A DNA stretch of 5,976 nt from a virus (lineage: Duplodnaviria; Heunggongvirae; Uroviricota; Caudoviricetes): the IMG/VR virus record IMGVR_UViG_2713896787_000006; one strand, given 5' to 3'. This document shows positions 1,438 to 5,976 of the stretch, in pieces (the stretch's first letter is position 1; the number at the start of each line of letters is the position of its first letter). The position numbers and the translations under genes are program-made. A model generated the notes under the pieces. The model did no database searches. It worked only from the letters and a program-made list of their open reading frames with translations, and was not told the DNA's origin.

Positions 1438-1626
1438 TTATCCAGCCGGTATTTCGTTATTCAGGTTCAGCGATACTTTTTTTAACGGGAGGCATTCACC
1501 GGGGATTTTTTGTTCGTCCCTTACCTGAATGCAGGATGACTTACTGTCATAAATTCCGGTAATCACATTTTGTGGCTCACCCGTTATAAGAAAAACGGTC
1601 ATCACCAGTGCAAATGCTGAAGTCAC
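1438..1626 (-). CDS. Small hypothetical early protein (about 62 aa with GTG start; 54 aa if ATG at 1602 is used), YdaE-like position
   Basis: Track ORF 1438..1626. GTG at 1626-1624 overlaps the TGA stop of the upstream gene (GTGA, translational coupling) and has GGAG 4-5 nt upstream; the alternative ATG at 1602 has a weak SD. Product not recognised. Confidence 0.4.
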   Translation of the reverse strand: MTSAFALVMTVFLITGEPQNVITGIYDSKSSCIQVRDEQKIPGECLPLKKVSLNLNNEIPAG

Positions 1627-1811
1627 TGCTGTTCTCCGATAATACCAAGTTCAAGAAGGGCAATTCTGGAAAGTATGGAATTATCATTGAGAAGATAAGG
1701 TTCATATTTTCTCATCTTAATGGCATCTTCCGTAAACTCCCGGTTACTGAGCAGAACACCAATATCAAAACAACCTTCAGACGTATTAACGTTTGGTAAT
1801 AACGTTTCCAT
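1623..1811 (-). CDS. Small hypothetical early protein (61 aa, METLLPNVNTSEGCFDIGVLL...), Kil-like position
   Basis: ATG at 1811-1809 preceded by GAGGA with a 7-nt spacer; stop TGA at 1625-1623. The track's longer version (to 1916) begins with GTG and lacks an RBS. The Kil assignment is positional only. Confidence 0.5.
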   Translation of the reverse strand: METLLPNVNTSEGCFDIGVLLSNREFTEDAIKMRKYEPYLLNDNSILSRIALLELGIIGEQQ

Positions 1812-1828
1812 TATCGCGTCCTCAACAA

Positions 1829-1976
1829 TGAATTTTGTGATGCGGTGCCTGGTGCCTCCAGGTGACGTTAACCAGTTAACAATTAACGCCGGATACAGAG
1901 AATCCACCCATAACACTGTTTTTGGTTTTAACTGTTCCGCGTGCGCTCAGCCGCATTCACCGCATCACAAAATTCA
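1829..1976. repeat. Perfect 19-bp inverted repeat pair (TGAATTTTGTGATGCGGTG at 1829-1847; CACCGCATCACAAAATTCA at 1958-1976) flanking a 110-bp segment rich in internal symmetry
   Basis: Both arms checked base by base. Interior contains GTTAACCAGTTAAC, CCTGGTGCCTCCAGG and tandem CCGCAT(T)CAC. Left arm ends 17 nt upstream of the start codon of the 1623..1811 gene. Confidence 0.9.
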
Positions 1977-2063
1977 CTTTAAAAAGGGCGGCAGAGCAGT
2001 CACGGAGTAAAACTGATACCGCCAAACGTCACCAGAAAATTGATAACAGAGGGCGTTGCAGCG

Positions 2064-2100: not shown

Positions 2101-2375
2101 GGTGTCCTCAACGGGGAAGGAATAACCCCGCCATACTTACCGCCGCGCCATTTCGCGGAGTGCCACAACCGGAAGCGCACGTTCGAAGAAATCTAACGAC
2201 AAGCCTTCTAAGGGAAAGAGCTTCGCCGTACGCTTTCGCGTTATGCCCTGACTTTTCAGGGAAATATCCTTTCAGTAAACTGTCAGTACCGGATTCTTAT
2301 CCGTGTCCGGCGCACGACCACACGTGACAGCGTGTTGGTCTCCATTTTTAACCCAGAACCTCAATGGAGGATAAA

Positions 2376-3570: not shown

Positions 3571-3612
3571 AGGATACCCATGGGTATTTAAAAAGTAAAT
3601 ACCCATGGGTAA
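3571..3612 (-). promoter_or_regulatory. PL-like leftward promoter with two palindromic operator sites (OL1 TACCCATGGGTA 3575-3586; OL2 TACCCATGGGTA 3600-3611)
   Basis: Two copies of the perfect palindrome TACCCATGGGTA spaced 25 bp centre to centre (the first is a perfect 14-mer ATACCCATGGGTAT). On the minus strand: -35 TTTACT (3599-3594), 17-nt spacer, -10 TATCCT (3576-3571). OL1 overlaps the spacer and -10; OL2 abuts the -35. Confidence 0.55.
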
Positions 3613-3653: not shown

Positions 3654-4073
3654 TTATGATGCGTTTTGTGCTTTCTTTTTACGGATTTCTTCGTAGATCA
3701 TATTGTAATACTGTTTTTTCTCTTCAAGAGTTTTTAATAAGTTATCCGCTTCACTTTCTGGCAGTTCGTCTAAGAGATCTAAAAAAATACGTTGTCGTGG
3801 CGTTAGAACCCTTGTTTCATAATTGGAGGCTGTGTTCGTTGATGATGAAACGATACCATCCATCCATCCCCGGGGTAACCCAAAGGACTCTTCTATAATC
3901 TCCACCATATCATCAGCGATCCGTTTTTTTCCTTTTTTCCCCTCTGGGTACAACATTCTTGATACATAAGAAGGCTCGCGACCGATCTTTCTGGCCACGT
4001 TAACCGCTTTACCATCGCATTTCTCATCACGAATTTTGATGAGTTGTTGTCGTCTAAATTCATATTTGTCCAT
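3654..4073 (-). CDS. Prophage repressor-like HTH DNA-binding protein (139 aa), CI-like position, too short for a LexA/S24 autocleavage domain
   Basis: ATG at 4073-4071 (MDKYEFRRQQLIKIRDE...). Probable HTH around GKAVNVARKIGREPSYVSRML. Divergent from the Cro-like gene, with operators at both ends. The track's TTG start at 4115 adds an implausible Cys-rich extension. Positional analogue of RacR/CI; I do not recognise the sequence itself. Confidence 0.75.
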   Translation of the reverse strand: MDKYEFRRQQLIKIRDEKCDGKAVNVARKIGREPSYVSRMLYPEGKKGKKRIADDMVEIIEESFGLPRGWMDGIVSSSTNTASNYETRVLTPRQRIFLDLLDELPESEADNLLKTLEEKKQYYNMIYEEIRKKKAQNAS

Positions 4074-4079
4074 AGGTAA

Positions 4080-4148
4080 ATAATAGATGCGATTACCGCA
4101 AGGTAAACAACCCAAGGGTATTGACTTTTGTTTACCTGTGGGTATTCT
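4080..4148. promoter_or_regulatory. Divergent immunity control region: three operator-like TACC-N4-GGTA sites (4094-4105, 4109-4120 imperfect, 4133-4144), PR-like promoter, and a possible PRM-like promoter for leaderless repressor mRNA
   Basis: PR: -35 TTGACT (4121-4126), 16-nt spacer, -10 TATTCT (4143-4148); site 4133-4144 overlaps the spacer and -10, site 4109-4120 abuts the -35. This mirrors PL. Minus strand: TATTAT at 4085-4080 lies 6 nt upstream of the repressor ATG, with a weak -35. SD AAGGAG at 4162-4167 precedes the Cro-like ATG at 4173. Confidence 0.5.
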
Positions 4149-4934: not shown

Positions 4935-5976
4935 ATGGCTAACGCCTGGCTCAGATTATGGCATGACATGCCAAATGACCCTAAGTGGCGAACAATTGCC
5001 AGGGTGTCAGGGCAGCCAATTGCAACAGTGATGGCAGTGTATATCCACCTCCTGGTGAGCGCGTCACGAAATGTCACGCGAGGTCACATTGATGTCACGA
5101 CAGAAGATTTGGCAAGTGCGCTCGACGTGACAGAAGAGGTAATTGATTCAATTTTGCAGACGATGCAGGGGCGGGTACTTGATGGTGATTTAATCACTGG
5201 ATGGGAAAAACGCCAGGTGCTGAAAGAGGACAACGGCAATATTTCGCAAACCGCAAAATCTCCGGCAGAGCGCAAGAGGGCGCAGCGAGAGAGGGAAAGA
5301 AAGCGGGAACAAAATGGCGATTGTCACGGCGCGTCACGAAATGTCACGCACATGTCACGACGAGTCACGACAGATAAAGATACAGATAAAGATACAGATC
5401 AAGAAGATCAAAACACTATGGTCCATGGCGTAAAAAACGCCACGAACCAGGCAGGGGATGTTCAGACCGTCAATCCTGGTCAGCCAGCAGGCACGACACC
5501 GGAAGCCGATTCAGCGTATGCGCTGAAAGCCGATTCGGGCGCTGTGCAGCAGGTGATGACCGCAAGGCAGGAGCAATCACACCAACTTCAGCAGCCTGAA
5601 GCCGATTCCGCCATTCAGCGGGAAGCCGATCGGGTAGTCCCGGAAAACACCGGGCAGCCTGTGGGACGAGTGGATTATCCGGATGTGTTCGAACAGGTCT
5701 GGCGGGAATACCCGTTGCGTGCTGGGGCAAACCCGAAGAAATCCGCTTTCAGTGCCTGGAAGGCCAGATTACGCGAGGGGGTGCCACCAGAGGCCATACT
5801 GGATGGTGTGAGGCGTTACGCAAGATACCTGGCGGCTACCGGGAAAACGGGAACGGAATTTGTTCAGCGAGCGACGACGTTTTTTGGGCCGGACCGGAAT
5901 TTTGAAAACCCCTGGTTGCTCCCGGTAAGCGGCACGAACAACCAGCGTTGTGTGAATCATATTTCTGAACCGGATA
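4935..5976 (+). CDS. Partial CDS (3' end beyond window): phage replication initiator (O-like), ori iterons embedded, C-terminal region resembling the conserved phage replication-protein C-terminus (FEQVWREYP...KKSAFSAWKARL)
   Basis: ATG at 4935 with SD GAGGTGA; stop-free frame to the window end (347 codons: MANAWLRLWHDMPNDPKWRTIARVSGQPIATVMAVYIHLL...). Absent from the track because it has no in-window stop. All antisense track ORFs here are shorter and junk-like. Confidence 0.8.
   Translation, partial: MANAWLRLWHDMPNDPKWRTIARVSGQPIATVMAVYIHLLVSASRNVTRGHIDVTTEDLASALDVTEEVIDSILQTMQGRVLDGDLITGWEKRQVLKEDNGNISQTAKSPAERKRAQRERERKREQNGDCHGASRNVTHMSRRVTTDKDTDKDTDQEDQNTMVHGVKNATNQAGDVQTVNPGQPAGTTPEADSAYALKADSGAVQQVMTARQEQSHQLQQPEADSAIQREADRVVPENTGQPVGRVDYPDVFEQVWREYPLRAGANPKKSAFSAWKARLREGVPPEAILDGVRRYARYLAATGKTGTEFVQRATTFFGPDRNFENPWLLPVSGTNNQRCVNHISEPD
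5059..5100 (+). repeat. Iteron cluster 1: four (T)GTCACG repeats at 5063, 5073, 5083 (GTCACA) and 5094, 10-11 bp apart, plus an inverted copy CGTGAC at 5126-5131
   Basis: Direct inspection; a 21-bp block GCGCGTCACGAAATGTCACGC (5059-5079) is identical to 5329-5349. Confidence 0.55.
5321..5405 (+). repeat. Iteron cluster 2 (five GTCACG repeats at 5323, 5333, 5343, 5354, 5364) followed by three tandem 12-bp A-rich repeats ACAGATAAAGAT (5370-5405); candidate replication origin
   Basis: Direct inspection; repeats in helical phase (10-11 bp); resembles the lambda arrangement of iterons plus an AT-rich region inside gene O. The repeats encode ASRNVT... and TDKDTDKDTDQED in the protein. Confidence 0.5.

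Follow-up and report, generated by a model that had tools for sequence, protein, structure and literature searches.

A long inverted repeat between dicF and dicB as the closing helix of a probably RNase III-cut RNA domain with an STnc100-like core

RNase III makes a staggered cut that leaves a 2-nt 3' overhang, and in the transcripts of lambda N, phage T7 and ribosomal RNA its action separates functional RNAs or remodels a ribosome-binding site. The stems concerned (the lambda N leader, T7 R1.1-R5 and the rRNA precursor stems) are long intramolecular helices of polycistronic transcripts that either are local hairpins or enclose rRNA. In the dicBF operon of Escherichia coli K-12, the small RNA DicF has two 3' ends, with a 53-nt form arising by termination and a 72-nt form arising by RNase III, according to two papers that cite Faubladier et al. 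1990 (PMC5069750, PMC9438474). These two accounts treat the RNase III site without an enclosed core and without a relationship to any RNA family. A third point of comparison is the RNA family STnc100; among sRNA families it is listed as one of the most abundant across bacterial genomes, and its function is not known (PMC9029176). The related PasD1 and PasD2 are sRNAs of EPEC prophages; they are expressed, depend on Hfq and have targets detected by RIL-seq (PMC8550237).

We analyzed a stretch of 5,976 nucleotides of caudoviral DNA (IMG/VR record IMGVR_UViG_2713896787_000006), referred to here as the window, which carries a perfect 19-bp inverted repeat. We consider it probable, at roughly 80%, that this repeat is the closing helix (P1) of an RNA domain in the dicBF transcript, that the domain is cut by RNase III, and that its core is a divergent member of the STnc100/PasD family. 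P1 resembles the lambda N, T7 and rRNA stems in being a long intramolecular helix cut by RNase III, but it has no sequence homology to them and encloses an STnc100-type core. Its likeness to the K-12 site is one of orthologous DNA at the same position between dicF and dicB, with the 72-nt DicF end in the 5' arm; the differences from K-12 Qin are allelic only, the window having a perfect 19 bp where K-12 has two G.U pairs. Because an RNase III cut has been reported in this helix in K-12, the stem downstream of DicF is essentially known and was described in 1990, as far as the citing accounts convey. What is new is that the stem closes an STnc100-type RNA common to the division-inhibitor modules of Qin and Rac. 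We therefore see three additions: the classical DicF RNase III site is linked to STnc100, which is a modest addition; an unannotated element is recognized in most complete E. coli genomes, with two copies in K-12; and the element is given a covariation-supported fold that includes a pseudoknot. The roles of STnc100-type RNAs, and the way in which a prophage coordinates an sRNA, a structured RNA and a toxic inhibitor, become directly testable in K-12.

The window comprises the immunity and early-left region of a lambdoid prophage, with a dicBF operon on the minus strand. In the order of transcription, its features are:

3654-4115, minus strand: repressor-like ORF
Downstream of the repressor-like ORF, minus strand: DUF1391 (YdfA-like) gene
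Between the DUF1391 gene and DicF, minus strand: 216-aa ORF
1986-2037, minus strand: DicF sRNA including its terminator hairpin (full-length match to Rfam RF00039)
1985-1981, minus strand: U-tract of the DicF terminator
1958-1978, minus strand: 5' strand of P1, made up of the right arm of the repeat (1958-1976) and two extra pairs (from the fold and covariation)
1827-1847, minus strand: 3' strand of P1, made up of the left arm (1829-1847) and two extra pairs (from the fold and covariation)
1812-1826, minus strand: dicB ribosome-binding spacer, with the Shine-Dalgarno sequence GAGGA at 1823-1819 as read from the sequence
1623-1811, minus strand: dicB, encoding the 62-aa cell-division inhibitor DicB (Pfam PF05358)
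Downstream of dicB, minus strand: DUF1482 (YdfD-like) gene (Pfam)

The DicF match scored 76.7 bits against a gathering cut-off of 48 (E 3.4e-16), and the DicB match to PF05358 scored 129.5 bits (E 3.7e-38). The same gene order is annotated in E. coli genomes, K-12 Qin included, and in phages, where dicB is named as such. In K-12, dicF is annotated at the equivalent relative position, and the spacer between DicF and dicB measures 174 nt in the window and in Qin alike. With DicF upstream (2037-1986) and dicB downstream (1811-1623), the repeat therefore lies within the dicF-dicB spacer. An upstream extension of dicB, in the form of a 97-aa GTG-initiated ORF (1623-1916) that would run through the element, was considered and rejected, because indels in the enclosed segment vary in length among homologues, because the downstream genes in those homologues are unrelated, and because the Pfam DicB model covers exactly the 62-aa form.

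Both a repeat search and the raw sequence show the two arms (1829-1847 and 1958-1976) to be 19 nt long, 100% complementary and 110 nt apart, the left arm reading TGAATTTTGTGATGCGGTG. The window contains this sequence at exactly two places, one on each strand, and allowing up to 3 mismatches adds no others; shuffled windows are expected to contain 0.01 matches, and in 0 of 200 shuffles were there at least 2. By calculation, 5976 bases should contain 6.5e-5 perfect 19-bp inverted pairs, or 4e-6 if the arms are to lie no more than 200 nt apart. Inside the enclosed segment are the palindrome CCTGGTGCCTCCAGG at 1848-1862 and a second one, a hairpin with GTTAAC, at 1864-1890. Between the left arm and the dicB ATG, 17 nt remain (1812-1828). 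The first-pass annotation had thus described the repeat accurately, as an exact 19-bp pair around 110 nt, beyond chance, with palindromes inside it, an end 17 nt before the start codon of the 1623-1811 ORF, and no target-site duplication (left flank ...caacaa, right flank cttta...). It identified neither DicF nor DicB, nor the STnc100-like core, and two of its details need amending: the downstream gene, which it had labelled Kil-like, is DicB by its Pfam match, and the helix that it gave as 19 bp, correct for the DNA repeat, has 21 pairs on the minus-strand RNA, where one G.U and one A-U pair are added.

Folding of the minus-strand RNA from 2040 to 1800, a check that the first-pass annotation had itself proposed, gave a minimum-free-energy structure with a 21-bp closing stem and several hairpins inside (z = -4.4). 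In this stem, positions 1978-1958 pair with 1847-1827 without interruption; the 21-bp duplex has an energy of -37.4 kcal/mol, and P1 thus has the approximately two helical turns of double-stranded RNA (at least 20 bp) expected of an RNase III processing site. In an alignment of 16 sequences of the dicB/kilR-type subfamily, 95.7% of the pair cells can pair, compared to 30-40% when the partners are slid against each other, and double-sided changes are seen at 16 pairs, 8 of which are among the 21 pairs of P1. The arms of the Klebsiella and Raoultella copies are altered in sequence with complementarity kept; in Klebsiella sp. I138, P1 has a very different sequence (AGGCUUUGCAAUACGGUG / CACCGCAUUGCAAAGCCU) that is complementary but for one A.C mismatch.

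The direction in which the repeat is read can be decided from its G.U pairs. The P1 of K-12 Qin contains two of them, which is why its arms match at only 17/19 as DNA while pairing fully as RNA, and the kilR-type copies have a U.G pair in P1. Six arm haplotypes from IMG/VR (among them GCGGUG/CACUGC, GUGGUG/CACCGC, GUGGUG/CAUCGC and GCGGUG/CGCCGC) differ only by transitions that are compatible with G.U pairing on the minus-strand RNA, and the same transitions would be A.C mismatches if read on the opposite strand. A covariance model built from subfamily copies likewise scored 169.8 bits on the minus strand of the window and 35.3 on the plus strand. The inverted repeat is an RNA helix rather than a DNA site, and its functional strand is the minus strand. 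The long-range RNA stem offered as one of several readings on first inspection was therefore right in kind, given the minus-strand pairing, the covariation and the K-12 DicF end inside the helix; the accompanying idea that the stem gates expression of the downstream gene fares less well, the 19-bp stem itself not including the dicB Shine-Dalgarno sequence.

P1 encloses a core of 110 nt, in which two hairpins and a 3-bp helix are accompanied by a further hairpin with a pseudoknot-forming loop. From 5' to 3' on the RNA, its parts are:

Between the 5' strand of P1 and P2, minus strand: junction J1/2, AAU
1939-1954, minus strand: hairpin P2, GCGGC / GC[A]CGC, 5 bp with a bulged A and a UNNGC loop
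1936-1938 with 1891-1893, minus strand: 3-bp helix P2.1, with covariation between GGA/UCC, GAC/GUC and GGC/GCC
1891-1938, minus strand: segment spanned by P2.1, holding the 5' strand of P3 and the variable insert
1928-1934 with 1873-1879, minus strand: pseudoknot P3, CAGUUAA pairing with UUAACUG in the P4 loop
1894-1927, minus strand: variable insert, with indels of varied lengths among homologues
1864-1890, minus strand: hairpin P4 (GGCGUUAA / UUAACGUC)
1848-1862, minus strand: hairpin P5, CCUGG-AGGCA-CCAGG, containing an SD-like GGAGG and abutting the 3' strand of P1

P2 is unchanged throughout the dicB/kilR subfamily; in canonical STnc100 copies (stand-alone or arrayed) it reads CCCCC / GG[A]GGG, a complete swap in which bulge and loop are kept, and family-wide 4 of its 5 pairs show double changes. 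For P4, double changes were found at 5 of 8 pairs in the subfamily and at 7 of 8 family-wide. P3 is likewise invariant within the subfamily, and family-wide many different complementary pairs take its place at the identical two positions, including AAGCCACAG/UUGUGGCUU, GACUGAA/UUCAGUC, AGACUAC/GUAGUCU and GAACUGGCA/UGCCAGUUC. Because the alignment fitted to the covariance model was too inconsistent in this variable region, we scored P3 by testing complementarity in each sequence separately instead of by alignment column. The mean longest complementary run was 6.72, compared to 5.14 with shuffled loops and 5.37 with permuted partners, and the observed value was reached in 0 of 300 runs of either control. 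In P5, the U-A pair is replaced by G-C elsewhere, with a G.U intermediate in phage P7, and the loop is invariant in the aligned copies, with the qualification that the scan pattern used to find the loci itself demanded this motif. No variation is seen in the AAU junction, the P4 loop UUGUUAACUG or the P5 loop AGGCA among the copies of E. coli, Klebsiella, Citrobacter, Raoultella and P1-like phages. These loops and junctions persist despite flanks that are unrelated.

Compared to the Rfam model of STnc100 (RF02076), the element in the window scored 40.1 bits (E 2.9e-6), which is under the gathering cut-off of 47 bits, with helices that agree; other copies of the subfamily scored 31-44 bits. The K-12 Qin, Klebsiella and Raoultella copies were not found in an Rfam scan at the gathering threshold, in which neighbouring canonical copies scored 48-95 bits. 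In the reverse direction, a covariance model made from dicB/kilR-type copies only, which we call R1, detects Rfam-validated STnc100 copies at 39-76 bits. Related loci were collected with a pattern taken from the P5/P1 junction, which yielded 48 loci in Pantoea, Erwinia, Rahnella, Klebsiella, Citrobacter and Escherichia; another two hits, both GC-rich, were discarded as due to chance. In these 48 loci, R1 finds about 70 copies, many of which Rfam calls STnc100 at 48-95 bits. Across 67 distinct sequences of the whole family, 94.6% of the cells are paired, compared to 37-45% when slid, and double changes occur at 35 of 42 pairs, although these covariation counts partly rest on an alignment that was fitted to a covariance model and thereby favours pairing.

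The window element has the secondary structure and core motifs of STnc100 (P1, P2, P4, P5, GGUGAAU and CACCNGGAGGCACCNGGCACCGC). It shares with STnc100/PasD a P1 with GCGGUG/CACCGC, the AAU junction, a 5-bp P2 with a bulged nucleotide and a UNNGC loop, P4, a P5 of the form CCNGG-AGGCA-CCNGG placed directly against P1, and a prophage- or phage-borne location. It differs in its lower score, in its fully swapped P2 sequence, in a P1 of 21 bp instead of 6-10 bp, in its place within an mRNA leader without a promoter or terminator of its own, and in its position in an early-left operon, STnc100 being found in late or tRNA regions. In addition, the printed Rfam consensus has no pseudoknot, while P3 is predicted for the window element. 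A scan for promoter-like and terminator-like sites on the minus strand around the element gave none above chance. The 3' part of the Rfam alignment, in which model positions of about 160-206 represent the terminator hairpin, extends into dicB with poor matches. The STnc100 copies of Pantoea, by comparison, have their own promoter (TTGCTT-18-TATAAT) and terminator. Since the element falls below the Rfam cut-off and has no stand-alone promoter or terminator, we file its core as a divergent, operon-embedded relative of STnc100/PasD and not as a certified member. ARAGORN called no tRNA on the STnc100-type copies of 16 related loci other than the window element.

The length of P1 sets the window element apart from most of the family. 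Contiguous P1 pairing amounts to 6-10 bp in nearly all canonical STnc100 copies and to 8-9 bp in the copies of P1-like phages. Most copies with an sRNA terminator or a gene on their upstream side and an ORF on the other have a longer stem of approximately 19-28 pairs (-29 to -41 kcal/mol). Another arrangement was seen in 26 IMG/VR loci: a core with a 9-bp P1 comes first, then a KilS/DicF-like sRNA, and then an unrelated long hairpin that starts in the terminator U-tract and has about 18 perfect pairs, or 25 in the fold. In other words, the core before the sRNA has a short P1 and a long hairpin stands after it, and the long helix therefore tracks the position behind the sRNA rather than the core. 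The comparative sequence data support a helix that would serve processing at this specific position.

The evidence that links P1 to RNase III comes from the orthologous K-12 locus. There, dicF occupies 1649382-1649434 (1083-1135 in our locus record L057) and the 5' arm occupies 1649444-1649462 (1145-1163 in L057), so that, by coordinate arithmetic, the 72-nt DicF extends to the tenth nucleotide of the 5' arm, 19 nt past the 53-nt end. Transferred to the window by coordinate mapping, this end corresponds to about position 1967, in the 5' strand of P1; the mapping of the two ends is somewhat uncertain, and a shift of 5 nt would leave the end within the arm. A comparison of delta-rnc and wild-type strains by RNA-seq reported a "dicF-dicB" site at 1649470, with 26 reads versus 0 and 0, which the authors of that survey flagged as "known" (PMC5371410). 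This peak lies inside the element and is a weak, low-resolution signal. Ragunathan et al. (2023; PMC10448788) describe only an RNase III site upstream of DicF, at the 5' end of a 190-nt species, and mention none downstream; the downstream site therefore rests on secondary citations and on our coordinate arithmetic. The dependence on RNase III reported for the K-12 orthologue would, by analogy, apply to the window.

Based on these data, the following course of events can be proposed. In transcripts that continue past the DicF terminator, the arms would pair into a long double-stranded RNA, in a domain that spans from just past that terminator to 15-17 nt before the dicB start codon, and RNase III would cut it. 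A cut in the 5' arm would give rise to the alternative, longer 72-nt 3' end of DicF. By the rule of the 2-nt 3' overhang, the matching cut in the 3' arm would fall at about 1837/1836 and may leave a dicB-ydfD mRNA with a leader of approximately 25 nt. Both cuts together would release a core of about 130 nt (1966-1837) closed by about 9 bp. We infer where exactly the cuts fall, that the core is released, and whatever effect this may have on the expression of dicB.

RNase III cutting alone does not explain why the core is conserved, since a plain hairpin would be enough for the enzyme. An alternative with less than even odds is that the product under selection is the core itself, as a free-standing STnc100-type RNA that acts in trans or binds a protein, with the long P1 as an excision device comparable to the rRNA precursor stems. 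This alternative overlaps with our best explanation and places the selected function elsewhere. The core is better conserved than dicB: relative to the window, the element is 100% identical in phage mEp460 and 97% identical in phage Tritos, with dicB at 88% and 87%, respectively, and in the same phages the ranges are 97-100% for the element and 83-88% for dicB. Together with loops and junctions that stay invariant across hosts and unrelated flanks, this conservation suggests that the core has a function of its own. The pseudoknot, with its family-wide covariation, implies a compact tertiary fold, and the cuts proposed above would leave about 9 bp of P1, as in stand-alone STnc100 genes (6-10 bp), some of which have their own promoter and terminator; the PasD relatives, moreover, are expressed Hfq-dependent sRNAs with RIL-seq targets (PMC8550237). 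On the other hand, an excised core would have neither the terminator hairpin nor the U-tail that Hfq-dependent sRNAs normally need, and STnc100 itself has no known function to lend (PMC9029176). A more specific proposal, that the core of about 130 nt is a pseudoknotted functional RNA of the STnc100/PasD class, excised by RNase III from early-left transcripts that also carry DicF or KilS and DicB or KilR, is tentative and in our judgement rather doubtful. If it were true, the invariant loops and the pseudoknot would suggest that the core works with a protein, the ribosome or the tRNA machinery and not by ordinary seed pairing, and the two unannotated K-12 copies in Qin and Rac would offer a tractable model for an abundant RNA family. 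The STnc100/PasD class, to which the core would then belong, is much larger and also forms tandem arrays in phage tRNA clusters.

A second alternative retains a part of the gating idea, in that an extension of P1 through the DicF U-tract would cover the dicB Shine-Dalgarno sequence, and RNase III, by cutting or binding, would free this site or mark the RNA for decay. Partition-function folding of read-through RNAs gave most of GAGGA a probability of being unpaired of 0.04-0.16, and for RNA cut at 1836 a value of 0.99 is predicted for 4 of its 5 bases. In kilR-type copies, the U-tract pairs with an A-run just upstream of the kilR Shine-Dalgarno sequence, giving duplexes of 27-28 bp. Layered control would be plausible for a toxic protein such as DicB (PMC10448788), and the lambda N leader, in which RNase III frees a ribosome-binding site, would be a parallel. 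However, the DicF U-tract and UUGAGGA are predicted, on thermodynamic grounds, to form 7 weak pairs, of which 3 are G.U; the folding of the cleaved RNA places the AUG in a local hairpin; and such a gate would not need the core. Furthermore, the extension is not conserved in the Citrobacter, Klebsiella and P1-like contexts, whose start codons are 25-60 nt more distant, and for this reason we give the gate a low weight and think it unlikely.

The distribution of the element bears on whether it could be a MITE-like unit with 19-bp terminal inverted repeats that was inserted upstream of dicB, as had also been suggested on first inspection. Homologues are found in four contexts: between DicF and dicB; between a DicF-like sRNA and kilR (Rac-SA53, the Stx phages 75/02 and phiSTEC1589, and K-12 Rac); as a core between tRNA genes and terB/tciA in the P1-like phages P7 and D6; and in prophages of Klebsiella, Raoultella and Citrobacter, with other small ORFs downstream. 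The search for further copies that had been proposed as a test for a MITE showed that 4642 of 5426 complete E. coli genomes contain the element (median 2 copies, maximum 9), unannotated among the E. coli matches listed; the total is about 10,400 E. coli copies. The copies that we inspected individually lie in the early-left operon slot of prophages or in phage tRNA or late regions, and all of them run in the direction of transcription. A MITE would fit the size of 148 bp, the terminal inverted repeats, the 1-9 copies per genome and a breakpoint of phage homology exactly at the outer edge of an arm (1827). We nevertheless regard this reading as very improbable: there is no direct repeat in the flanks (caacaa|TGAATTTT and AAAATTCA|ctttaa) and no empty site, the element being present in each of the 20 phage records with dicB (20 of 20); among phages and K-12, the copies inspected share one syntenic slot and a fixed orientation; the arms evolve by compensatory and G.U changes, as expected from selection on pairing and not on sequence; and the relatives have stems of only 6-10 bp around an interior that is a covarying RNA fold. 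The remaining first-pass suggestion, that the arms are a bipartite operator or DNA-looping sites for a prophage regulator, is the least credible of all, since two identical 19-bp inverted sites 129 bp apart from centre to centre would fit it, but no further arm copy with up to 3 mismatches occurs in the window, the immunity/operator region included, no significant promoter-like site lies nearby, the K-12 arms are matched at 17/19 as DNA and fully paired as RNA, the same arms occur in phages with different and unrelated repressors (DicA, RacR, CI), and the arms change by compensatory and G.U-type substitutions, those of Klebsiella and Raoultella being different in sequence and still complementary. 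For annotation purposes, an RNA helix thus accounts for a conspicuous repeat that is easily mistaken for a mobile element or an operator.

A 247-bp match at 98% identity in Aeromonas phage AP1, which at first looked like a horizontally transferred module of DicF and the element, was not used as evidence, because inspection by eye showed that, shortly before the record ends, four dicB codons run into a capsid fragment resembling lambda gpE, and the record is therefore probably a chimeric assembly. In K-12, the Qin copy (L057, 1142-1296) scored 162.7 bits with a model built around the window element. The second, paralogous K-12 copy, in prophage Rac (1748-1904 in locus record L058; 155 bits), lies between the annotated sRNA KilS and kilR. 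The Rac locus resembles the window as a triad of an Hfq-bound sRNA, an element with a long P1 and, 18-20 nt downstream, a division inhibitor directed at FtsZ; it differs from it in a bulged A and a U.G pair in P1 and in its downstream gene, kilR being unrelated to dicB.

A second K-12 copy of the long-stem element, comprising the P1 helix and its enclosed STnc100-like core, was found in the prophage Rac:

L058 (homologous locus of K-12 Rac) 1748-2003; NC_000913.3 about 1418247-1418502: region holding the long-stem element, covariance-model score 155 bits.

This copy lies directly 3' of the annotated sRNA KilS, which in related phages gives only weak DicF-family Rfam matches (35-41 bits), and kilR begins 18 nt downstream of it. 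The Rac copy is thus placed between KilS and kilR, so that Qin and Rac have in common a triad in which an sRNA is followed by the element and then by a division inhibitor. Comparison of dicB-type with kilR-type phages further showed that homology breaks exactly at window position 1827, the outermost base of P1 on its 3' strand. The conserved element thus forms a mosaic junction beside interchangeable toxic genes; those found next to it are dicB, kilR, a 282-aa ORF and small ORFs of 40-94 aa.

Another arrangement of related parts was found in 26 loci from IMG/VR, one of which is:

L059 3330-3530, minus strand: alternative module; same order in L061, L067 and 23 other IMG/VR loci.

Here, a K-type core with a short P1 of 9 bp is followed by a KilS/DicF-like sRNA and then by an unrelated long hairpin, which begins in the terminator U-tract and whose roughly 18 perfect pairs extend to 25 when the sequence is folded (z = -7.6).

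Canonical STnc100 copies occur in tandem arrays in Pantoea, Citrobacter and Erwinia, with up to 6 copies within about 2 kb. The array and tRNA-linked copies lie in the following homologous loci:

L023 6386-7847
L030 4123-5938
L026 2053-3615
L015 935-2000
L029 3728-5471
L042 207-748

The array copies adjoin or alternate with tRNA genes (Met, Thr and one odd tRNA with a 4-nt anticodon). The P1-like phages P7 and D6 carry the core within the tRNA/ban operon, with terB/tciA downstream. This setting suggests that STnc100 copies are co-transcribed and processed together with tRNAs.

The record of the T4-like Aeromonas phage AP1 contains 247 bp with 98% identity to E. coli DicF, the element and four dicB codons (L004 2991-3237; MT713136.1 about 249906-250152). 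Judged by eye, this E. coli-like stretch runs into a capsid fragment resembling lambda gpE, close to where the record ends, so that gene transfer into AP1 is disfavoured and the record is probably a chimeric assembly or contaminated.

Upstream of DicF, folding predicted a helix in the window:

About 2160-2245, minus strand: irregular helix, some 20 bp long, AUAACGCGAAAGCGUACG... paired with ...CGUGCGCUUCCGGUUGU.

This is where the upstream RNase III site is expected, at which the 190-nt DicF precursor begins (PMC10448788), some 137 nt before DicF. Taken as a whole, the region folded no better than shuffled sequences (z = -0.8).

Elsewhere in the window, other features were observed:

3575-3611: perfect 16-bp palindrome pair, TACCCATGGGTATTTA + 5 nt + TAAATACCCATGGGTA, in the interval that separates the repressor-like gene from the first early-left gene.
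5063-5101 and 5323-5393: GTCACG repeat clusters, spacing about 10 bp, downstream of YdaS/YdaT-like genes.
1201-1289: 89 consecutive N (masked), breaking the sequence that lies downstream of the DUF1482 gene.

The palindromes probably represent the half-sites of an operator at the early-left promoter; their sole Rfam match, a microRNA hairpin family, was dismissed as a chance match. The GTCACG clusters hold 3 copies with one GTCACA variant and 5 further copies; two tandem copies of ACAGATAAAGAT come next. Together the repeats look like iterons or an origin, or else like regulator-binding arrays.
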